From: Bdellovibrionota bacterium | GTDB taxonomy: Bacteria > Bdellovibrionota > UBA1018 > UBA923 | Assembly (NCBI GenBank): GCA_040754655.1 | Contig: JBFMCE010000051.1 | Location: 1-29,650, forward strand | Direction: 5' to 3' | DNA: 29,650 bases | Shown here: positions 72 through 20,112 of the stretch, piece by piece | How the letters are laid out: the number at the start of each line of letters is the position of its first letter | How positions within the stretch are numbered: position 1 is the first letter of the stretch | Notes under the pieces: generated by a model | Seen by the model: the letters and a program-made list of their open reading frames with translations, nothing else | Told to the model about the DNA's origin: nothing | Databases searched by the model: none | Translations under genes and position numbers: made by a program

Positions 72-1634
72 CTAATTTTTTTTGTGTGGATTATTGGCTT
101 TAGGATTGAATAGAAAATGATTCTCGCAACTCTTAGCTGAAGTAGAGAGGCGCGCTGGTCTAACGCCCAGCTCAACTTTTTTCACCGATTCCCAATCATG
201 GGTGGTGGCACCAAGCACCCTGATCTCAGCATCGAGCATGCGGATCTGACGATCAATATCATATTCATGGTTGTCAGAACGCAAATGCACCCGCTTGCGG
301 CTCCCACCAGCGGCACGCACTTTCACCACGATCGGGAGCCCTTCGACGGCGACATTCGCATACAGCTCGACGATCTGTTCAGCCTTTAGCACAGGAACAT
401 GCATCGTTTTTCCGTCACGCTGCGCGCGCGCAAGCAGAGCTGCTGCCACAACCCGCACTAGCGGCGGCAGAATTGCATCTTTAGAAAGGCGATGCAGCAG
501 CTTCTGGCCGAAGTAACCCAAATGCTCAGGGCGTTCCGTCATACTGTGTAAAGCTGTAGGTACAAAGTTTTTCTGAATAAGCCAGGCGCCCTGTTCGGGA
601 CCCACAAGTTCAAGCACCTTATCGATAGACCTGTCGGCGAGGATTGCGGTCAACTCGGAGTAAAGAGGAGAATAACGGGCATCATAAAACAGTACCATGG
701 CAGAATGCAAAATTGACTCTGCGACTTCTACAGAAACTCTCTCGGCAGCTTGAGCCTCAGTGAGGCTGCCTGCATTGTTTATCTTGGCCATTATCTCGTT
801 TCTCAGTGGTTCGTCTTTAAACTCACTTTTAAAGTTCATATGAGCAAGGGCCCGAAGGATATTCATGAAATCTGTCGAAGAACTGAGCTTTTTCTTCAAA
901 CCTTCTTCTTCAATGTCTACGAGTGCCTCGGTAAAACTACCGAAGAAATTGAAGAAGGTTTGCTTAGCTAGCTTGTAAGAGTTACTCTCGGTCTCGTTCA
1001 TCTTTGCAGGGTCTTCAAGCTCTTCGTAACCCGCAGGCCAGTTCAGTTCGCGCAGTCTCTTCTCTTCACTTTCGTAATGAGCACGCAACTGAGCACTGCT
1101 CATGGGTTGCGGTTTCACTTCACCGAAGCCTAGCAGATGAAGTGGTTCCCCATTTCGTCCTGATCCAAGGCTCAACCCCCCAAGAGAGGGTAAAAGCTCG
1201 CCACTTTGACTGAGCACCATATTTACCCCGACAAGATTGCGGAAAGAGAACTCAACCATTGATTGAGTAGCCTGTTCATACAGGCGAATTTGATCGGCCA
1301 CTACGCTACGGATGGGTTCTGGCTCAAGATCGGTGAAGTCGCCCAACCATACAAAACCGCGCCTGGCCAGAAGATCTCGAACTTCACGCGCGAATAAGGG
1401 TGCCGTGATCATACTGACCTGATTCGGATATTTATTGACCCAGAAAATCTTTACCTTTGTGTCGAGGTCGTGATCGAGTAGGAGCATATTGATTTCATCA
1501 TAGGCTGCTTGAACGGACTGACCAGGCAGGTGAACCCCATACTGACGAGTGCGCTTAAACTCATAGGGAGGGGCCGCATAGGTCAAAGACCAGGCGAATA
1601 GCACAAGCAATGGCATGAAAATCCGGAAACACAT
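72..1634 (-). CDS. Hypothetical exported protein (520 aa)
   Basis: Long ORF with a hydrophobic N-terminal signal-like segment (MPLLVLFAWSLTYA); the start may be the second Met. No recognisable family motif. Confidence 0.7.
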   Translation of the reverse strand: MCFRIFMPLLVLFAWSLTYAAPPYEFKRTRQYGVHLPGQSVQAAYDEINMLLLDHDLDTKVKIFWVNKYPNQVSMITAPLFAREVRDLLARRGFVWLGDFTDLEPEPIRSVVADQIRLYEQATQSMVEFSFRNLVGVNMVLSQSGELLPSLGGLSLGSGRNGEPLHLLGFGEVKPQPMSSAQLRAHYESEEKRLRELNWPAGYEELEDPAKMNETESNSYKLAKQTFFNFFGSFTEALVDIEEEGLKKKLSSSTDFMNILRALAHMNFKSEFKDEPLRNEIMAKINNAGSLTEAQAAERVSVEVAESILHSAMVLFYDARYSPLYSELTAILADRSIDKVLELVGPEQGAWLIQKNFVPTALHSMTERPEHLGYFGQKLLHRLSKDAILPPLVRVVAAALLARAQRDGKTMHVPVLKAEQIVELYANVAVEGLPIVVKVRAAGGSRKRVHLRSDNHEYDIDRQIRMLDAEIRVLGATTHDWESVKKVELGVRPARLSTSAKSCENHFLFNPKANNPHKKN

Positions 1635-10082: not shown

Positions 10083-11627
10083 ATGATCTTAATGCGACGC
10101 ACAGTAAGATGCTTTTTTCTAGGTTTCTTTTTTATTATTTTGACCGCCCAAACCAGCTTCAGTGAATTCAAATTCAGGTTGAACGAAGACTTGGGAACCC
10201 TTGACTGGGGTTATGGAGAAATCAACGGAACGATCGTCCAGCAACTCATGGAAGGGCTGACTCTCTCGGATAAAGACGGGAAACCTGTTCCCGCGATAGC
10301 TAAAAAATGGAGGTTCATGCCCGGCAAACAACCTTCGTTCATTTTTCACCTCGATCCAAAATCCGCGTGGTCAGACGGAGCGCCCGTATGCGCGCAACAT
10401 TTCATCGATGCTTGGAAAAGGGTGCTTGATCCGGGCTTTGCCTCTCCGTATGCACATTATCTTTTCGACGTGAAAAACGCGAAGGCGTTTCATTCAGGGA
10501 AGGAAAGAGATGCCTCAACCCTGGGGCTAGAGGCGCTAGGCTGTCACACGTTGAAGGTATTGCTCGAAAAACCTGCTTCGTATTTCGCGGCCATCACGAG
10601 CCATTGGGTTCTTTTTCCGATCAGGAAAGATCTGATTGAGAACGCCCCGCGCGAATGGACGCGCCCCGGAAAACTCGTCGTAAATGGCCCTTATTTGCTG
10701 AGCGAGTGGGCGCCGGACCAGCATTACGTCTTGAAGAGAAACCCTAAGTACCATGGCAGACCCGCTTTCGAAGAAACCTTGAAGGCGGTGGTTGTTCGGG
10801 AAGATGCTACTGCATTCAATTTATTCCAAGACAAGAGATTGGATTGGGTGAAAGACCTGCCGTTCCTCGAAAAGCCAAGATTGTCATCAACGCCGGAGTA
10901 CAAACTCTTTCCGACCCTCGTTGGCTATCACATCGGCTTTCGGCCAGACGTTCCTCGGAACATTCGCTGCGCGCTCTCAAAGTCATTGAACAAAGATGAG
11001 ATCCCGCAGGTGCTCAAAGGAGGCGAGACTCCGGCCTGGGGCGTGGTTCCGGCCGAACTCGCGAGATACGCGCCAAAATCTCACTACGACCCGGTTCAAG
11101 CGAAAAAACTTTGGGACCAGACCGAGGATAAAACTTGGGAAGCGCACTATTATTCAAAAGACATCCACACGCCGCTCATGGAGTGGGCTCAAAGCCAGTG
11201 GAAGAAAAACCTGGGCGCCGAAGTGAATCTAAAGAGGATGGAAGGGAAAACCTATTGGTCTTTTCTGCAAAAATCGCCTCCTCAGATTTTCTTGAGCGGA
11301 ACCACCGCCGCATACGCGCACCCGTATACTTTTTTATCTGAATTCCTGTCTCAGAGCCATGCCAACTGGGGACGCTTCGCCAGCGCTCCCTATGATAGGG
11401 CAGCCATGAAAACTTCTGAGCTTCTGGCCGGTTCTCAATTGAAGCCTTGGGTTGAAAAGGCGCAAAAGATCTTGATTGAAGACCAATGCGCCGTCATCCC
11501 GCTCTACTTTCGCCAAACCGCCTCTCTTGTCTCAAAAGACTGGAATGGATTTCACGTCAATCCAATGACTTATGTTTATTTAAAAGACGTTCGAAAGCGG
11601 ACGCCTGACATGGCGACGAAACCTTGA
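10083..11627 (+). CDS. oppA: Peptide ABC transporter substrate-binding protein (family 5, OppA-like)
   Basis: QLMEGLT, PAIAKKW, WSDGAPV, AWKRVLDP, NGPYLL, RNPKY and IPLYF motifs of SBP family 5; N-terminal signal. Confidence 0.88.
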   Translation: MILMRRTVRCFFLGFFFIILTAQTSFSEFKFRLNEDLGTLDWGYGEINGTIVQQLMEGLTLSDKDGKPVPAIAKKWRFMPGKQPSFIFHLDPKSAWSDGAPVCAQHFIDAWKRVLDPGFASPYAHYLFDVKNAKAFHSGKERDASTLGLEALGCHTLKVLLEKPASYFAAITSHWVLFPIRKDLIENAPREWTRPGKLVVNGPYLLSEWAPDQHYVLKRNPKYHGRPAFEETLKAVVVREDATAFNLFQDKRLDWVKDLPFLEKPRLSSTPEYKLFPTLVGYHIGFRPDVPRNIRCALSKSLNKDEIPQVLKGGETPAWGVVPAELARYAPKSHYDPVQAKKLWDQTEDKTWEAHYYSKDIHTPLMEWAQSQWKKNLGAEVNLKRMEGKTYWSFLQKSPPQIFLSGTTAAYAHPYTFLSEFLSQSHANWGRFASAPYDRAAMKTSELLAGSQLKPWVEKAQKILIEDQCAVIPLYFRQTASLVSKDWNGFHVNPMTYVYLKDVRKRTPDMATKP

Positions 11628-12357: not shown

Positions 12358-13668
12358 TTGTTAGCGGAAAAACTTGCTGGGTGTAAAACCCAGCGCCTTA
12401 AGTTTATTGGCCTTTTTTTTGCCTTAAGCCAAGCAGTGGTGAGCCTTGCGCTTGCGCAAAGCGCTCCTCAGCCAAGTTCTGCCACCGCCAATAATCCAAC
12501 CGATCCTTCGAGCATGAATGTGCCATGCTCTGAACGACCTGAATTCGGAAGACGGGCCTGCACGGCGGTCAAAAATGAAATCAGCCAGTATCTCTCGGCC
12601 CGAATTGGCCATGTGATCCATTATTTTTATGAAGGAGCGATGGTCGAGTTCAAGGAAGGCGCTATGGCGGCAACCCCTGGCAGTGGGTCTCAAGATCCGG
12701 GATTCTGCAAAGTCCTCGATACCGCGGTGCCAGTTTGTGAGATCAAATCAGGCGAACTTGCGCGAAACACGCATAAAAGCGGGCAATCTTGTCGAAACCC
12801 TCTCAACGGAAACGAATTCTGCGTCTTCACCCGCCAAGGGATGGACCTTGCCTCATGCGGGCGCGAACTTGCTTGGATCAGGGGCTTTCGCGTCTCGTTG
12901 CTTGAGATGCACCGACAAGCGGTGCTCAATGAGATCCAGGCGGGGGTATTGAACCTCACCGAGATCGGCGGAGCACGCGTCTGCGGCCAGATCGCGCAAA
13001 ACATCCTGGGCGCGACAAGGCAAATTGATGAGGCGGAAGAGTCCGTTCGCGAACGCTACGCCGACGCGAAAGAAAAGCTCAACACCTCTGAAGCCGAGGG
13101 ATGTCTCGGGATAGAAAATGAAAACCAAGTGACAGGCACCGGCACCACCAACAGAGAGCTTGCGACGCAACAATCAAAATCACTGGCCCAAAGGGTGATC
13201 GACCGTTTCTTCAAACCTGTCAGAGATGAGAAGAAGTTCATGGCAGGCAACGATGAAAAACGCATTTCTCACGCGGCCTGCAACCTTGCGATCGCGCGCT
13301 TTCAGACCCAGTCGATGTTCACGAAACTTGCTCAATGCGAAGTCATGATGCGGGCGAAGCGAGACTTTTATGAAGACCACCTCAAAGCCGACGTGATCTT
13401 CAGGCAAATCCTCGCCGAAGTGGTCGACCCCTGCATCAGATACGTCGATGAAAACTCTGGCCTGTTGCAAGAATGCGACGACGAGGCTGAGTGCATCGAT
13501 CTTTTCAACCGATGTTACCGAGGCGAACGCCCTCAAGCGACCCGAGGGATCGCAAACTTCTTTCAGCGCTACAGCCAACGCCACTTCGCAACGAACCAGC
13601 CCACCCAACGACGACCGTTGCCAGGATTGGATATCCCATTTAGCGAGGTGCCCGTATGCGGTCAATAA
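12358..13668 (+). CDS. Cys-rich secreted hypothetical protein
   Basis: TTG start after a G-rich SD; signal ending ALA-Q; 16 Cys in the mature part; overlaps the next gene by 13 nt. Confidence 0.75.
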   Translation: MLAEKLAGCKTQRLKFIGLFFALSQAVVSLALAQSAPQPSSATANNPTDPSSMNVPCSERPEFGRRACTAVKNEISQYLSARIGHVIHYFYEGAMVEFKEGAMAATPGSGSQDPGFCKVLDTAVPVCEIKSGELARNTHKSGQSCRNPLNGNEFCVFTRQGMDLASCGRELAWIRGFRVSLLEMHRQAVLNEIQAGVLNLTEIGGARVCGQIAQNILGATRQIDEAEESVRERYADAKEKLNTSEAEGCLGIENENQVTGTGTTNRELATQQSKSLAQRVIDRFFKPVRDEKKFMAGNDEKRISHAACNLAIARFQTQSMFTKLAQCEVMMRAKRDFYEDHLKADVIFRQILAEVVDPCIRYVDENSGLLQECDDEAECIDLFNRCYRGERPQATRGIANFFQRYSQRHFATNQPTQRRPLPGLDIPFSEVPVCGQ

Positions 13669-14519
13669 CTCGGGCGCTGCTTCCAATGGCAACTCTAACG
13701 GCTTCGATATTCTTCATCGGATGCGATAGCGATCCACTGCTTGCTCCAACCCTGGGAAACGCTGATTACTGCATCTTAAATGGCCAACCCGCCCGAAGAA
13801 ACTCGACCGGCGGCGCGACCGAATGCAGACGCTCAGGAGAAGGCATCGACTCAGCCTTTGAGCAATGCGCCCAAAGCGCAATCGCCCCTTGCGCTGAGCT
13901 GGAAGTAGCGCCGCCCGGCCCATTCACTGTCGTAGAGCTTTCAGAAATCGATAATCAATTGCAGCAGCTCGCGGACGTAAGGGCGGATTCAGGAAATCAA
14001 ATCGTCGAAAAAGGCGACCCCAAGAAAAACCAAGCCTCTTCCTTGGCGAGCGCCAGCAACGACAAGCGTTTTTCATCGAAGAAGTCTCAACAGAACGATC
14101 CTCATAGGCGTTCAGGAGTCGGTGACGCAAAAGGATCAACTCAAAATCGATTTGCGGATGGCTCTTCTGGCCAGTCTGACGCGTCTAAAGAAGCGGCAAA
14201 CTTCGCAAACCAAAAAGATGGCTTCGGAAGCGATTTTGAAAACAAAAACTCAGGCCAGGCCAAGAAAGACGAGGCCAACGCGAGCACTGAAGAATCAAGA
14301 AAACTCGCGGGCTCCGGCGGACCTGGTCGTTTCGTCGCCTCGAATTCAGAACCCAGCGGCGGATTGGGTTACGGGAGCTTCGACAGTTCAGCTCCGGTGA
14401 GCATCTCTGCGGGCACGGAAACCATCGACTACTTCAAACGCGCGGGCAAACTGACTCTATTTGAAGTCGTGAACAAGCGTTACGATAAATGGGGCCGCAC
14501 GCTCAATCCTAAAAACTAG
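13656..14519 (+). CDS. Hypothetical lipoprotein with a low-complexity linker
   Basis: Lipobox FIGC; 4-Cys N-domain; S/G/K/N/D-rich middle; C-terminal LFEVVNKRY helix; SD GAGGTG. Confidence 0.75.
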   Translation: MRSITRALLPMATLTASIFFIGCDSDPLLAPTLGNADYCILNGQPARRNSTGGATECRRSGEGIDSAFEQCAQSAIAPCAELEVAPPGPFTVVELSEIDNQLQQLADVRADSGNQIVEKGDPKKNQASSLASASNDKRFSSKKSQQNDPHRRSGVGDAKGSTQNRFADGSSGQSDASKEAANFANQKDGFGSDFENKNSGQAKKDEANASTEESRKLAGSGGPGRFVASNSEPSGGLGYGSFDSSAPVSISAGTETIDYFKRAGKLTLFEVVNKRYDKWGRTLNPKN

Positions 14520-14583
14520 CCAGTCTCTTGACGGATAGCGTCTTCTGAGGTTGCATTCTGGATCAAGACCTTGGGGGACCTTA

Positions 14584-15882
14584 ATGGGAAAAACTGATTT
14601 CGCGCCAATCTTGCTTTTAACAATAGCCCTGACCAGCGCAAGTTGTTCCAGCCGAAGCAATCACGGCAAAGAACTTGCTCATCAAAAAGAAGATCATGAG
14701 CTTGGCCTTTTTCACATTGTCACCCCAACGCAGCTCGAAAAATCCGGCTCGATGCCGAACGAGGGCGGCATCTCAGAAGTCATTCGCGTGGGCGCCAGAG
14801 CTTTAGAGTGGCTGACTCTTCTTCAAAAAAACACGCCCATGGCCCAACGCACCCAGGTTTGGAAAAAAGAGAGTTCCATCGGAAGAGAATTTTCGCCGGA
14901 ATATCCGTTGATTTACAATGACGCCATCATTCTAGAAGAATTCAATTCAACCTTTGCAAGACTTCCATTGTCGGCGCAACAGGTGCTCTTGGATGCAACA
15001 ATAGGCTTACCCGAATCCGCGCCAAGCGACGTCTCGCACGATGAGCTTATTGGCTTCCTGAGCGCGATCTTCAGCTCTTACTCCCAGGCAAGCCGATGGC
15101 TTTCGCTTTACGATAAAAGAGATGCCTACAAACAAGGCCCGAGAGATGTACGGCCCTGGCTTAAGCTTCGTGATAGAGAGACCGCGCTCAAGGAATTGAT
15201 TTGGAAATGGGATGTGATCTCACCGGAAGAGCGCATGAAATTCGTCGATGAGCTCGCCGGCTCCTGTCCTTTCGCGGTCTCGAAAGAAAAGCAGGCCTGC
15301 ATTAAAGAGTACGAACGCTTAGCGGAATCAATGTTCGCAGGCACCAGGGCCTTTCGTTGGCTCAATGAGCTTATCCGCCAAGGCAAAGAGCGTTACGAAG
15401 AGAAATTTGCGATAAAAAGGGCCAATCAAGGATTGCGCACCTCGTCTGTGGGTGCTCTTAAGAAAATTGAGCTCGGCGTATTTGGGATAGACCGGGAACT
15501 CTTGCAATGGATGCAGGAACAAATTGCCCAATCATGGAATTTCCCGGGCCTTCTCACGGTCGAACTCTATGAAGCCCAGACAGAGACCGAGCAGTCCCTC
15601 GTCGTAGAATGGAAAAGCGGGGAAATGCCGCGTGTCCCGCAAACAGGCGGCAACGTCATTGTAATGGACGCCAACACGCCCCGCTGGCTTGAATACACGA
15701 ACGTCACCTTTCGCCATGAATTCGGGCATATCCTGGGTTTCGGCGACTGTTACACGGAATTCTGGGATGAAGAGTTGCGGGCTTTCACTTTCTATTCTTT
15801 TGATCCCACTAACGCGATGTGCGCACTCAGCGGCGATTATCAAGAGCGTCATTACAAGGCTTTGGTCGAGAGGTACTTTTAG
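14584..15882 (+). CDS. Metzincin-type zinc metalloprotease, probable lipoprotein
   Basis: HEFGHILGFGD (HExxHxxGxxD) plus a downstream NAM Met-turn; hydrophobic signal ending SASC. Start at ATG 14584 with SD GGGGG. Confidence 0.75.
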   Translation: MGKTDFAPILLLTIALTSASCSSRSNHGKELAHQKEDHELGLFHIVTPTQLEKSGSMPNEGGISEVIRVGARALEWLTLLQKNTPMAQRTQVWKKESSIGREFSPEYPLIYNDAIILEEFNSTFARLPLSAQQVLLDATIGLPESAPSDVSHDELIGFLSAIFSSYSQASRWLSLYDKRDAYKQGPRDVRPWLKLRDRETALKELIWKWDVISPEERMKFVDELAGSCPFAVSKEKQACIKEYERLAESMFAGTRAFRWLNELIRQGKERYEEKFAIKRANQGLRTSSVGALKKIELGVFGIDRELLQWMQEQIAQSWNFPGLLTVELYEAQTETEQSLVVEWKSGEMPRVPQTGGNVIVMDANTPRWLEYTNVTFRHEFGHILGFGDCYTEFWDEELRAFTFYSFDPTNAMCALSGDYQERHYKALVERYF

Positions 15883-15964
15883 CCGCGCTCTACCGCGGCA
15901 CGACAACACTTTAATTCCCAGCACATATTGCCTCTAGAGCGGGTTGGCCTAGAATAAACCATAG

Positions 15965-16441
15965 ATGTCGCTAAGGATTGGCTACACACTATTGGTTTTT
16001 CTCATCCTCTCAGGGTTCACTTTTCCTGAACTTCCCACCGAGTCTCGCGGCATTTATCGATTCAAGAACGCGAATCAAGGTGAATCACGGAATCAATTCG
16101 CCCTGCACTCAACGACTTCAGACGCATCGATTGAAGCGCGATTTCAACTCACCGTGGGCTTTAGGCCTTCGGTTTTCAGAGACCTCTCCGAATCCGCATC
16201 AAGGCAAGACAAGGCAAAAGCCTTAGTCGATTTCCTCGCGAAGAATCTCGATCGCTTCCACGAAGGTTTGGTGAACGTCTCGGTCTCTGACATCTATGTA
16301 GACATCAGGGAAGTCATCCTGGATGTCGAAGTAAGCGCTTCTTTGGATGCCGCAAGGGTACGCACGGAACTTCTTAAAAAATTAAACAGACGTCCTGAAA
16401 CCTTATTCGCTGGCGAACCCAGCATCATAACCATCGAATGA
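15965..16441 (+). CDS. Exported protein resembling a subtilase prodomain (I9/fervidolysin-prodomain-like)
   Basis: N-terminal hydrophobic signal; QLTVGFRPSV and ELLKKLNRRPETLFAGEPSII resemble the first strand and final helix-strand of S8 prodomains; ATGA overlap with the S8 gene. Confidence 0.6.
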   Translation: MSLRIGYTLLVFLILSGFTFPELPTESRGIYRFKNANQGESRNQFALHSTTSDASIEARFQLTVGFRPSVFRDLSESASRQDKAKALVDFLAKNLDRFHEGLVNVSVSDIYVDIREVILDVEVSASLDAARVRTELLKKLNRRPETLFAGEPSIITIE

Positions 16442-17964
16442 AAAAAACCTTTCTTCTTGCGCTTTTCGTACTGCTCTTCGCCTCATGTTCTTCGGATGAG
16501 AAGTTGGTCACCAATTCCTTGCCGAACATCGGCGTCAATCCCAACCGACTGCCTCCGGGCAAATACACCCAAAGCGCTTTAGAAATTCCGGCGACAGTAA
16601 ACGACACCTATTACCTGGCGGCTGCGCCGTGGGCGAACTCAAGTCTCGTGCCTTATCTCTGGGGCTTTTCCGATCTCGAAGTCGTTTCAAGGTTTCCCAA
16701 TCTTACATTGCCCGCGGCTGAAATCGTCGTCGCGGTCATTGACACCGGCGTTGATAAAGACCACGAAGACCTCGCCGGCAGGCTCTGGGTGAACCCGCGA
16801 GAAGGCAGTGATGCGCTTTACAACAACTTCGTTGACGATGATTCCGATGGATTCAGAGATAATTTCCTCGGATGGGACTTTGTAAACAATACAAACAACC
16901 CCGCTGATGACGCCGGACACGGCACGCACGTGGCCGGAACGATCGCGGCCATCGGAAACAACTCGCTCGGGATCGTCGGCGTATCCCCGTGGGTTCGCAT
17001 CATGGCGATCAAGGTATGCAATGAAAGCGGCAGCTGCCGAAGCTCTGATATCAGAGCGGCCATCTCTTTCGCGGCTTCACACGGGGCCAAGATCATCAAT
17101 CTAAGCCTCGGAGGATTGAGCCGGGGCTCTGATGCGATCGCTTTCGATCAGGTGATCACCGAGGCCACGAATGCGGGAGTGCTCGTCGTAGCGGCGGCCG
17201 GAAACTCCACCGCAGATACGGCCCTGATGACCCCGGCAAATGCAACGCATTCCATTGCCGTAGCCGCGCACGCCAACGACGGCGGCATCTGCAGTTTTTC
17301 GAATTGGGGATGGAAAGTCGACTTCAGCGCCCCGGGCTGCGCAGTAAACGAGGGAAGGGAAGTCGCGGGGGTTCTTTCTCTCAACTCTCGCAAATGCGGC
17401 CAGAATGCAGACCAGTACTGCTCGCTTCGCAACCTCGTCGGCAATGCCTACACGCTGAAATCAGGAACCTCGATGGCTACTCCTCACGTCGCGGGTTTGG
17501 CCGCCGTGGCTTTCACCGCAAGCCCAACGGCAACTCCGCTTCAAATCCGCCAAGCACTCTTGCGAACCTCGCGAGCAGTATCAACGGGGTACAAGCACGT
17601 CGACTTCGGCGCCGGAAAAGCCTCATCAATAAATTTAATTGATGAAGCCAGAACAGCTCCCGGGATCAAGATCACCTCGCCTTTCTACGGCACGAGCGCC
17701 GAGTCGCATGCCATAGGCATCCGCATCGAAGCGCGAGACCAGCCCGTCGAATGGACTTTGAAATACAAACGATCAAGCGATGGAGAGAACTTAGACGTCA
17801 GCGATGCGACAACCATCGAGAACGGAAGCGCCGTCCTGCCGAGCAATGCGATCAACCACACGGTAAACTGGACTCCCCCCGCGAGCGGCGACTACATCAT
17901 CGTTCTTGAAGGACGGATCGGGGCCGAGCTCTACTATGACACTCACATGGTCAACCGACCGTAG
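16438..17964 (+). CDS. S8 family serine peptidase (subtilase), lipoprotein
   Basis: Lipobox FASC; triad VAVIDTG, HGTHVAG, SGTSMATPHVAG; oxyanion AAGN; acidic DDDSDGFRD insert; C-terminal beta-rich domain of about 100 aa. Confidence 0.95.
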   Translation: MKKTFLLALFVLLFASCSSDEKLVTNSLPNIGVNPNRLPPGKYTQSALEIPATVNDTYYLAAAPWANSSLVPYLWGFSDLEVVSRFPNLTLPAAEIVVAVIDTGVDKDHEDLAGRLWVNPREGSDALYNNFVDDDSDGFRDNFLGWDFVNNTNNPADDAGHGTHVAGTIAAIGNNSLGIVGVSPWVRIMAIKVCNESGSCRSSDIRAAISFAASHGAKIINLSLGGLSRGSDAIAFDQVITEATNAGVLVVAAAGNSTADTALMTPANATHSIAVAAHANDGGICSFSNWGWKVDFSAPGCAVNEGREVAGVLSLNSRKCGQNADQYCSLRNLVGNAYTLKSGTSMATPHVAGLAAVAFTASPTATPLQIRQALLRTSRAVSTGYKHVDFGAGKASSINLIDEARTAPGIKITSPFYGTSAESHAIGIRIEARDQPVEWTLKYKRSSDGENLDVSDATTIENGSAVLPSNAINHTVNWTPPASGDYIIVLEGRIGAELYYDTHMVNRP

Positions 17965-17975
17965 TGAACCCTTGA

Positions 17976-18632
17976 CTAGTTTCGTTGCTCTGCAGGCTGC
18001 CTCTTCACGGTTTCTTGATCAACGTCGATGAAGAGCTGAACCCTGCGATTCCTCGCCCTGCCATTTTCCGAGCTGTTAGTGGCCACGGGTTTTGCCTCTC
18101 CGAAACCCACCACTGACATTTGTTCTTCCTTCACGCCCCGGCTTCTCAGCACCCTTTGAACCGCTTCAGCGCGTTCGACCGAAAGTCGTTCATTGAAAGC
18201 ATCACTTCCGGTATTGTCGGTATGCCCTTCAACTCGAACCCGGTTTTCTTTGTATTTCGCGAGGATGTCACCGACCTCGACCAATTGATCGACCGCCGAG
18301 GGTTTCAGCACCGCGCTTCCGGTTTCGAACAAGAGATCATTCTTAAGATCGACAAGAATCCCATCCTTAAGCCGTTTCGTGTCTGCGACCTTTGAAAGTT
18401 CCTTTGCTTGTTTATCAAGATAGTTGCCAATGGCGGCCCCGGTCGCGGCTCCGGCCGCTGCTCCAATACCGGCGCCAGACCAACCTCCGGCGGCGCCCCC
18501 TAGAGCGCCTCCCACAGCGGCACCCGTACCCGCTCCAATTGCCGTGCGCTTGCCGGGGCTCGTGCAGCCCGACAAAAACACCATTGTGATAAGGGTCAAG
18601 AAAGTGAAAAAAGATTTAATGGGAAGTTTCAT
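17976..18632 (-). CDS. OmpA-family lipoprotein with glycine zipper (YiaD-like)
   Basis: Lipobox LSGC, GAxxGA repeats, OmpA C-domain motifs EGHTD, LSVERA, GFGE and NRRV. Start reassigned to ATG 18632 (SD GAGG). Confidence 0.92.
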   Translation of the reverse strand: MKLPIKSFFTFLTLITMVFLSGCTSPGKRTAIGAGTGAAVGGALGGAAGGWSGAGIGAAAGAATGAAIGNYLDKQAKELSKVADTKRLKDGILVDLKNDLLFETGSAVLKPSAVDQLVEVGDILAKYKENRVRVEGHTDNTGSDAFNERLSVERAEAVQRVLRSRGVKEEQMSVVGFGEAKPVATNSSENGRARNRRVQLFIDVDQETVKRQPAEQRN

Positions 18633-18641
18633 GGCCGCCTC

Positions 18642-18683
18642 GCTCGTTCTGTTGACATTGGTCTTGTTGTCAACAGAACGAGC
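18642..18683. repeat. Perfect 16-bp inverted repeat with 10-nt loop
   Basis: GCTCGTTCTGTTGACA (18642-18657) / TGTCAACAGAACGAGC (18668-18683). Confidence 0.95.
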
Positions 18684-18697
18684 AATGGCTATGCCAA
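18681..18697 (-). promoter_or_regulatory. Sigma54 (-24/-12) promoter of the OmpA lipoprotein gene
   Basis: Minus strand reads TTGGCATAGCCATTGCT (TGGCAT-N5-TTGCT), about 50 nt upstream of the ATG. Confidence 0.75.
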
Positions 18698-18714
18698 TTC
18701 TAATAGTCAGCTGA

Positions 18715-20112
18715 TCAGCTTGTCGCAGGCTGAGCGGCCTTGTTTCCTGGAGATGATTTCTCAAGGAAGTCACGAACCTTGTAGCGAGCAGCGCTGATGA
18801 TGAAAATCACCGATACAGCCAGCATCATCACAGCGAAGAAGAAGAAAAAGTTCGCGCCCTGAAAAATATTGACCTTCGAAATGTACGCGGTGAGCAAATT
18901 ACCCACGAACACCGTCAAGAGCCAGAAGCTCATGATCGTGCTCTTCATCGCTCGAGGGGCTTGAGTGTAAGCAAACTCAAGTCCAGTGATGGAAATCATC
19001 ACTTCCGCCATTGTAATGATCAGGTAAGGGATGATCTGCCAAGCCACCGAAACGATTTGACCTGCATCGATCGCCATCTGTAGGATGCCTACGAAAACAA
19101 ACGAAAACGCAGCCAAAACCATTCCGACCGACATGCGGCGAAGTGGCGTCATCTTGAATCCGAACTTCTCGATCATAGGATAAATCAGATAAGCAAAAAG
19201 CGGGATCAAAGCCATAACCATGATCGGGTTCAATGCAGCGATCTGAGAAGACTCAAGTTTCGTTCCCCAAACATTGAGATCCATTTTCTCGGCTTGTAAA
19301 ATCCAGCTTGAACTGTGTTGGTCAAACAAAGCCCAAAAAGCAGAAACAGTGATGAACACCTTGAAGATGGAAGCCGCGGCTTTGGCTCCTTCAACGTCTT
19401 CAGCGCTGTATTTATTCCTGGCAACATCCAAGAAAGACTGCCCAGGCTTGCGCTTGCTCGCATTCATAAGAGAATAAATAACGATCGGCATAAAGCCTGT
19501 TGCACCCGTCTTACCGGTCGGAGGAACATGCACGTATTGCTTGCGTCCCATCCAAAAAACGAAAGTTGCAAGGAACATCAAAATACCCGGAACACCGAAC
19601 GCCACCGAGGCGCCGTAACGAGGCAGAATCCAAGGAATGAGCAAAGTCGAAAAGAATGAACCGAAGTTGATCGACCAGTAGAAAATATCAAAAACACTCT
19701 TTACGAGATGTTTATTTTTATCAGTGAATTGATCACCGACGTGCGCCGAAACGCATGGTTTGATGCCGCCAGATCCGAGGGCGATCAGCGCCAATCCCCA
19801 ATAAAGGCCTGTCTTGGTTTCCCAAACTGCGAGAACCGCATGGCCTAAACAGTAAACCAACGAAAGATAGATGATCGTTTTGTATTTCCCAAGATAGCGG
19901 TCCGAAATGTACGCGCCAAGGAGCGGCAAGAGATAACATGCGCTAACGAACAAGTGAAAAATGCCTTTGGCATCAGGTTCTGACATCATCAAATGCTGAG
20001 TCATGAAAATAACCAAGATGCTGCGCATGCCATAGAAACTAAAGCGTTCGCACGCTTCGTTGCCTACGATGTATCTGATCTGCGGTGGAAATGAAGTTGT
20101 TTTGGTTGTCAT
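18715..20112 (-). CDS. POT/PTR family proton-dependent oligopeptide transporter
   Basis: EACERFSFYG (ExxERFxYYG), GAYISDRYLGK, GSGGIKP, FYWSINFGS and EFAYTQAP motifs; multiple TM helices. Confidence 0.95.
   Translation of the reverse strand: MTTKTTSFPPQIRYIVGNEACERFSFYGMRSILVIFMTQHLMMSEPDAKGIFHLFVSACYLLPLLGAYISDRYLGKYKTIIYLSLVYCLGHAVLAVWETKTGLYWGLALIALGSGGIKPCVSAHVGDQFTDKNKHLVKSVFDIFYWSINFGSFFSTLLIPWILPRYGASVAFGVPGILMFLATFVFWMGRKQYVHVPPTGKTGATGFMPIVIYSLMNASKRKPGQSFLDVARNKYSAEDVEGAKAAASIFKVFITVSAFWALFDQHSSSWILQAEKMDLNVWGTKLESSQIAALNPIMVMALIPLFAYLIYPMIEKFGFKMTPLRRMSVGMVLAAFSFVFVGILQMAIDAGQIVSVAWQIIPYLIITMAEVMISITGLEFAYTQAPRAMKSTIMSFWLLTVFVGNLLTAYISKVNIFQGANFFFFFAVMMLAVSVIFIISAARYKVRDFLEKSSPGNKAAQPATS

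Follow-up and report, generated by a model that had tools for sequence, protein, structure and literature searches.

The N-terminal prodomains of subtilisins are the textbook example of an intramolecular chaperone, and they also function in trans in vitro. Here we analyze a stretch of 29,650 nucleotides (nt) from a Bdellovibrionota bacterium (positions 1 to 29,650 of contig JBFMCE010000051.1, GenBank assembly GCA_040754655.1; hereafter the window), in which the gene of an S8 protease (subtilase) with a putative lipoprotein signal, 508 amino acids (aa) long, is directly preceded and overlapped by the gene of a 158-aa exported protein, hereafter the partner. A preliminary description made from the sequence had proposed that the two genes form a naturally two-gene protease. 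This proposal is supported by the conservation of the pair, by the fold match of the partner and by the predicted complex, and we put at roughly 70% the probability that the prodomain function of this subtilase resides in a polypeptide encoded by a gene of its own. What is new is the combination, in a bacterium, of a prodomain-less, putative lipoprotein subtilase with an operon-coupled, prodomain-like partner. The titles and abstracts searched, with subscription journals outside the coverage, described no bacterial pro-subtilase that is split in nature.

The natural point of comparison is the cis propeptides of subtilisin, thermitase and the fervidolysin-type enzymes (MEROPS I9; PF05922 and PF22148). 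The partner is like them in its predicted docking, in its product-like tail and in a similar helix 2-strand 4 end (..P..lFAGEP.. in the partner, ..P.VEfAEPNY.. in the prodomains). Unlike them, it has its own gene and its own signal peptide, and therefore would need no autoprocessing; it also has an extra N-terminal motif, an acidic or amide last residue and no significant sequence similarity to them. Stand-alone inhibitors that share the fold of propeptides but resemble them little in sequence include Pleurotus POIA1, the yeast proteinase B inhibitor, Arabidopsis SPI-1, Toxoplasma MIC5 and Plasmodium SUB1-ProM, the last of which is encoded beside subtilase genes (PMC6993865). All those named in the accessible part of this source are eukaryotic and are regarded there as regulators without a chaperone role, and SUB1 has its own propeptide (PMC6993865). 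By comparison, the host here is a bacterium, the two genes overlap within an operon and the protease is without a prodomain. To our knowledge, the targets of the other named inhibitors likewise keep cis propeptides of their own.

A similar gene order is described for the potempin/KLIKK operons of Tannerella forsythia, in which the stop codon of the upstream open reading frame (ORF) overlaps the peptidase start or lies at most 5 bp from it; potempins are co-transcribed with their targets, specific and 1:1, and the target of PotC, mirolase, is an S8 enzyme (PMC9890683). Potempins are lipoproteins with an OB-fold or an eight-stranded beta-barrel that place loops into the cleft, and the KLIKK peptidases all keep a prodomain (PMC9890683). 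The upstream ORF that overlaps or abuts the peptidase start is common to both systems. However, 17 of the 18 partner homologues have no cysteine at the end of the signal peptide (P0131 is the exception), and the modelled fold of the partner is alpha/beta with no barrel; here it is the protease that carries the putative lipobox, whereas the exported partner resembles a prodomain.

The same topological problem is posed by dentilisin (PrcB-PrcA-PrtP) of Treponema denticola, an acylated S8 protease with upstream helper genes, in which the accumulation of PrtP requires PrcB (PMC8167434). The cis propeptide of PrtP spans residues 19-158, activation removes an acylated 15-kDa N-terminal fragment, and mature PrtP, now without lipid, is retained on the surface through PrcB and PrcA1, both lipoproteins (PMC8167434). 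PrtP loses its lipid with the cis propeptide, a loss that a trans prodomain would avoid; the argument from the lipid anchor made in the preliminary description thus has a published counterpart. The window protease is itself not a PrtP member, because it reaches 89.6 bits with the model denti_PrtP against an NCBIfam cutoff of 300, and membership of the mycosins was rejected as well (T7SS_mycosin, 139.8 bits against an NCBIfam cutoff of 278.75).

Two further bacterial systems deserve mention. Lif of Burkholderia and Pseudomonas is a separately encoded periplasmic steric chaperone for one hydrolase and is classed with the propeptides of subtilisin and alpha-lytic protease (PMC3352829, PMC7046727). 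Unlike the partner, Lif has a lipase as its client and is itself membrane-bound. Its fold is multi-domain and helical. In Myxococcus xanthus, popC is encoded together with popD. The subtilisin-like PopC is bound in a complex by PopD, which blocks its secretion and is degraded on starvation; PopC is without a signal peptide, and the accessible part of the source describes no prodomain-like fold (PMC6434023).

The protease gene and its overlapping upstream partner

The features of the pair are collected in Table 1. The protease ORF begins with ATG AAA AAA and its product matches Peptidase_S8 (PF00082) over residues 95-393 (E = 1.1e-57, 196 bits against a cutoff of 21.8). The nearest relatives of solved structure are AK.1 protease, thermitase and the subtilisins (E-values of 1e-36 to 1e-25 against the PDB). 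A word-index search placed 19 other proteins in its family (P0003-P0021, 43-61% identity), mostly 489-524 aa long with a few shorter fragments, each of which carries PF00082 only. In the alignment of the window protein with 17 of these 19, all 18 sequences have Asp102, His161 and Ser345, in the order Asp-His-Ser, together with the oxyanion Asn256. The AlphaFold model of the protease shows a normal catalytic domain, followed by a confidently predicted C-terminal all-beta domain, which is conserved across the family and has no match in Pfam.

Table 1. Features of the two-gene locus (positions in the window)
Feature	Position	Strand	Basis
Partner gene, 158-aa exported prodomain-like protein (predicted)	15965..16441	+	ORF call; 14 other homologues; no Pfam/NCBIfam family
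Partner signal peptide, about residues 1-16	15965..16012	+	sequence and homologue alignment; helix 3-15 in model
Conserved N-terminal motif of mature partner, F18..F33: GFTFPELPTESRGIYRF	16016..16063	+	alignment of 18 homologues
Partner core, residues 56-150	16130..16414	+	AlphaFold model
Partner C-terminal tail, residues 151-158, EPSIITIE, predicted in substrate cleft	16415..16438	+	complex model
ATGA start/stop overlap, putative translational coupling	16438..16441	+	ORF coordinates, relatives' junctions
S8 (subtilase) gene, putative lipoprotein, 508 aa	16438..17964	+	Pfam PF00082
Putative lipoprotein signal peptide, lipobox F-A-S-Cys17	16438..16488	+	read from sequence
35-residue tether, putative lipid anchor to mature-type start	16489..16593	+	family alignment
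Catalytic domain, residues 53-400	16594..17637	+	alignment and AlphaFold model
Asp102	16741-16743	+	codon checked
His161	16918-16920	+	codon checked
Asn256	17203-17205	+	codon checked
Ser345	17470-17472	+	codon checked
C-terminal all-beta domain, about residues 409-508	17662..17961	+	AlphaFold, pLDDT > 90

The preliminary description had read a lipoprotein signal (Cys17), followed by only about 35 residues before a thermitase-like mature start, and both can be read from the sequence. The N-terminus of the protease, MKKTFLLALFVLLFASC, reads L-F-A-S-C17 at the lipobox, the cysteine of which is kept in all 16 N-terminally complete family members (the other two of the 18 aligned are truncated at this end); the Pfam model LPAM_1 matches this signal weakly and under its cutoff (E = 0.21). 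The mature-type start, TVNDTYY, occupies residues 53-59, 35 residues after Cys17. In the family alignment the tether carries a conserved NPNxLPPGxYxQ motif, continuing ..L.IP, and residues 1-36 are disordered in the AlphaFold model, with a predicted local distance difference test (pLDDT) below 50. In addition, six cysteines (Cys194, 200, 285, 301, 320 and 328) are invariant in the family, two of them bracketing the substrate-binding strand 198-203, and an Asp-rich insertion (..VDDDSDGFRDN..; residues 118-145) lies between Asp102 and His161, which we take to resemble calcium-binding loops.

None of the 20 rows of the protease family, window included, contains a prodomain Pfam domain. Below the family, at identities of 46% or less, PF22148 (the fervidolysin-like N-terminal prodomain) is present in cis in 48 of the next 100 relatives among the matches listed (P0022-P0121). 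In these more distant relatives, the cis domain ends ...P.VEYAEPNYLV right before a ..PNDP.. motif that corresponds to residues 54-57 of the window protease. Because PF22148 ends directly before this motif, the window protease has no room for a cis prodomain, as previously claimed, and the disorder of its first 36 residues agrees with this. Judged from its sequence, the protease is without a cis prodomain, unlike its nearest outgroup. The function of the missing domain, found in nearly half of these relatives, must therefore be either dispensable or supplied in trans.

The partner ORF ends with ATC GAA TGA, and the coordinates verify the ATGA overlap with the protease start reported earlier. 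A single reference-genome scan, run with the family alignment of the protease, yielded 80 S8 loci, four of which (L001-L004; protease identity 49-58%) are orthologous to the window; they are labelled Oligoflexia (two), 'Deltaproteobacteria' (one) and candidate division WWE3 (one). A partner homologue lies directly upstream of the protease in each of the four, making five of five with the window. The junctions differ: L001 and L003 have an 8-nt overlap, L002 has a GTGA overlap or, alternatively, an ATG 2 nt past the stop, and in L004 the genes abut; in every orthologous locus the small gene is closed by a stop codon of its own, and the protease then opens with a new signal peptide and lipobox. 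We then searched a partner profile against every ORF of at least 50 aa in the 80 loci and the window. It matched at five places only, namely the window and L001-L004, with 0 matches in the other 76 S8 loci; the L003 partner was recovered at E = 6.9e-22 from outside the profile, which includes those of L001, L002 and L004.

Three further observations concern these loci. In L003, the protease frame (about 205..330) has a lipoprotein signal (..ALALVAGAGCGDD..) and then an in-frame TGA before the catalytic domain, the deposited protein (P0012, 458 aa) beginning downstream; this TGA may be a sequencing error, a pseudogene mutation or a recoding site. L001 is labelled candidate division WWE3 though it is the closest full-context locus, which may reflect a mis-binned contig or transfer of the cluster. 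Finally, a promoter and terminator scan found a 9-of-12 promoter-like site at 15928-15955; three such sites were found against a mean of 1.7 in shuffled sequence, which is not above controls.

Partner family, fold match and predicted complex

The partner translation contains all the peptides quoted in the preliminary description (QLTVGFRPSV, VILDVEV and ELLKKLNRRPETLFAGEPSIITIE). An exhaustive phmmer search of 1.84 billion representative proteins returned 15 proteins at E <= 0.001, query included, and a word-index homology search returned the query alone. Since all 15 span 137-165 aa, no partner homologue among them is fused to a protease, and a profile search of 8000 candidates of 351-2000 aa likewise revealed no fused longer form, which is weak evidence. 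Thus, of the conserved pairs and fused homologues envisaged earlier, the pairs were found and the fusions were not. Against Pfam and NCBIfam the partner gave noise only (MinC_N, E = 0.085; GluQRS, E = 0.11), and Pfam on the 18 homologues gave 18 different single-member noise matches. The partner belongs to a small uncharacterised protein family with 15 representatives and no Pfam match.

The alignment of 18 homologues reveals a common layout of hydrophobic signal, conserved motif, poorly conserved linker and a core with the pattern strand-helix-strand-strand-helix-strand. The signal comprises Arg4, a hydrophobic stretch and a small residue, followed by a conserved Gly-Phe18, and we infer cleavage at about residue 16. 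The motif that follows has the consensus G-F-x-x-P-x-L-P-x-x-S-R-G-I-Y-R-F. Invariant positions across the alignment are F18, G65, E116 and F148, and Y31 is near-invariant. The tail after Phe148 is exactly 10 residues long in 16 of 18 homologues and one residue longer in the remaining two, and its last aligned position is E, Q, D or N in all 18.

An AlphaFold model of the partner, made with the homologue alignment, consists of strands 56-66, 103-111, 116-124 and 146-150 and helices 80-94 and 129-141, with pLDDT mostly 82-95 in the core block. In a Foldseek search of the PDB, the top rank was taken by the subtilisin E propeptide (1scj_B; probability 0.98, template modelling score 0.64 on the target, E = 0.048). 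Further matches are pro-subtilisin E (3whi), the prosegment of subtilisin BPN' (1spb_P, probability 0.95) and 8gkp_J, a 91-aa Aspergillus alkaline protease chain of propeptide size.

For the complex, protease residues 18-400 were folded together with the mature partner (residues 19-158), each with an alignment of our own making. The score was 0.78 (0.77, 0.78 and 0.79 in the individual runs), while the best of three controls scored 0.00; the runs have no fewer than 82% of contacts in common, and the partner is modelled at a pLDDT of 76 or more. On the protease side, the predicted interface comprises residues 102-103, 161-162, 198-214, 223-239, 253-256 and 343-348, including the substrate-binding strands 198-203 and 223-226 and the surface helices 202-214 and 230-245 (limits from the AlphaFold model), which form the predicted docking site. 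On the partner side it comprises residues 63, 65 and 109-118 on one face of the sheet, the entire tail region 147-158 and, within the N-terminal motif, residues 29, 30 and 32. In the prediction, the sheet packs against both surface helices, and the tail occupies the substrate cleft next to Asp102, His161, Ser345 and Asn256, with residues 154-156 paired to protease residues 198-202 and 224. The C-terminal strand thus takes up, in the model, the position that had been anticipated for it. Subtilisin propeptides bind in this way, with the sheet on two long helices and the C-terminal tail in the active-site groove (PMC6993865), and the predicted docking is the published binding mode as far as the model goes.

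Conservation offers support for the complex that is partly independent of the structure prediction. Within the partner, positions at the predicted interface show higher conservation than the others (permutation p = 0.007 for residues 19-158, 0.016 for residues 55-158), and the three positions downstream of Phe18 that never vary, G65, E116 and F148, are all part of this interface. In the model, the invariant Glu116 is placed against the invariant Arg206 of the protease. We take the prediction as a likeness to propeptide binding, not as proof that the pair binds.

Reading of the pair and its alternatives

The best reading of these models is that the partner is a prodomain-like inhibitor acting in trans, which would let the enzyme keep its N-terminal lipid anchor. 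Because stop and start codons overlap, both proteins would be made from one message in about equal amounts. Export would be separate, with the partner using an ordinary signal peptide and the protease a lipoprotein signal, to be lipidated at Cys17. Outside the cytoplasm, the four-stranded sheet of the partner would dock on helices 202-214 and 230-245, and its 10-residue tail would lie between strands 198-203 and 223-226, with the terminal acidic or amide residue beside Ser345, His161 and Asn256, as in the product complex of autoprocessed pro-subtilisin. Such a complex would be inactive, and activity would appear once the partner leaves or is degraded. A cis prodomain behind the lipobox would remove the anchor along with itself; with the prodomain in trans, no bond between anchor and enzyme needs cutting, so the active protease would stay membrane-tethered. 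By analogy with cis prodomains, the partner may also template folding, and it is possibly a folding chaperone as well.

A stronger version of this proposal is that gene fission of a pre-pro-subtilase has turned the prodomain into an obligate intermolecular chaperone and inhibitor, exported separately and coupled to a lipid-anchored enzyme. We hold it tentatively, at somewhat less than even odds. If true, it would be the first bacterial stand-alone 'intramolecular chaperone' in vivo and a general way to hold an N-terminally lipidated protease on the surface after activation. The pair suggests a rule for lipid-anchored proteases, namely that a prodomain after the lipobox costs the anchor and a trans prodomain does not. 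As a natural two-piece system, in which the halves can be separately expressed, mixed and mutated, it would suit studies of folding, kinetic stability and inhibitor release.

Several observations weigh against a trans prodomain. No partner match in the Foldseek search reaches E = 0.001, and the propeptide matches are interspersed with ribosomal S6, ACT, Pop5 and further ferredoxin-like folds. The prodomain fold claimed in the preliminary description is thus borne out by the rank of the subtilisin E propeptide, and not by its E-value or by its separation from other folds. Membership in the I9 or fervidolysin-type families by sequence is not supported: profiles of I9 (PF05922) and PF22148 matched 0 of 18 partner homologues at E-values up to 10, and hhalign of the partner against 15 cis prodomains gave a local probability of 5% (global P = 0.084). 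Within this comparison there is a local match of 20 columns (partner residues 134-153, P = 0.0074) to prodomain helix 2-strand 4 in the expected register, which contains the pair of motifs quoted above. A profile search of the PDB gave nothing relevant, its matches being de novo designed alpha/beta proteins, none better than E = 0.023, and the ESM Atlas, whose own model of the partner is poor (pLDDT 0.50), gave no usable feature match and, by structure, generic look-alikes only, such as phage hypothetical proteins and AcrB subdomains. Sequence comparison does not show membership of the partner in the prodomain families; the likeness to prodomains, as modelled, is structural and positional.

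Other points on this side concern the complex, the family and the enzyme class. In calibration, the mark reached by the complex is met by 116 of 157 solved complexes and by 2 of 215 mismatched pairs, counts that hold only roughly here because our own alignments were used. Since subtilisin-propeptide complexes have been solved, the score may partly be model recall. The pairing is established at five loci only, and the partner motif 18-33 is without a counterpart in classical prodomains. Moreover, some subtilases without prodomains, such as the mycosins, fold unaided, and a chaperone role is therefore not implied by the missing domain.

Among the alternatives, the one that survives best is that the partner is a dedicated periplasmic inhibitor and nothing else, like potempins or staphostatins, its prodomain-like fold being due to convergence or distant descent, and that the protease folds alone. 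Precedents speak for it, since all known stand-alone propeptide-like proteins are described, in the accessible part of the source, as inhibitors independent of chaperone activity (PMC6993865), and since bacterial genes for 1:1 inhibitors lie upstream of, and overlap, those of secreted peptidases, one target being an S8 enzyme (PMC9890683). It also fits the lack of demonstrated sequence homology to cis prodomains and the predicted binding mode, which would be inhibitory in itself. However, the cognate protease here is without its own prodomain, unlike the cases published in the accessible parts of these sources (PMC6993865, PMC9890683), and the domain is present in 48 of the next 100 relatives listed. 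We consider this explanation unlikely, while noting that tight 1:1 coupling and strict co-occurrence fit it and the trans prodomain alike and that the computations do not separate the two.

Far less probable is that the partner is an unrelated exported ferredoxin-like protein, for example a sorting or assembly factor, a substrate or a regulator, which is co-expressed with the protease and stays outside its active site. The generic look-alikes in the ESM Atlas and the N-terminal motif foreign to prodomains would suit such a protein, but the complex score of 0.78 against 0.00 in controls with the tail modelled in the cleft, the concentration of conserved residues in the predicted interface, the constant tail length and the top rank of subtilase propeptides among fold matches all argue against it. 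The weakest explanation, a frameshift or assembly error that splits a single pre-pro-subtilase gene, was rejected, and a chance ORF is ruled out with it, because the small gene stands upstream in the orthologous loci and is recovered there by the profile search, because five independent assemblies show a stop and then a new start, signal and lipobox cysteine in four junction geometries, and because all 15 library matches are short proteins.

Neighboring genes

Judged by its gene content, the neighborhood seems to serve protein breakdown and the uptake of peptides. The gene directly before the pair (14551..15882, +) encodes a 443-aa protein with a lipobox-like N-terminus and the zinc-metalloprotease motif HEFGHILGFGDCY. 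It falls into no Pfam family, with a weak M6-domain match at the motif (E = 0.075); possibly this is another lipoprotein protease, from a family not yet described. A 445-aa homologue with the same motif occupies the same position in L001 (4173..5510), and none is found in L002 or L004.

Further upstream lie two overlapping ORFs (12358..13668 and 13656..14519, +) of 436 and 287 aa, which are Cys-rich, secreted-looking and without Pfam match. By eye the two resemble the N-terminal and C-terminal portions of one 952-aa ORF in L001 (1243..4101); the gene may have been split or fused, or one assembly may contain a frameshift. The cluster is flanked by genes for a family-5 solute-binding protein (10083..11627, +; PF00496, E = 2.1e-50) and a POT-family peptide transporter (18715..20112, -; PF00854, E = 1.8e-90). 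A gene at 17976..18773 (-) runs convergent to the protease gene and ends 11 nt past its stop; its product belongs to the OmpA family and has a glycine-zipper segment (PF00691, E = 2e-23; PF13488), and a similar gene stands immediately behind the protease in L003 (1729..2406, -).

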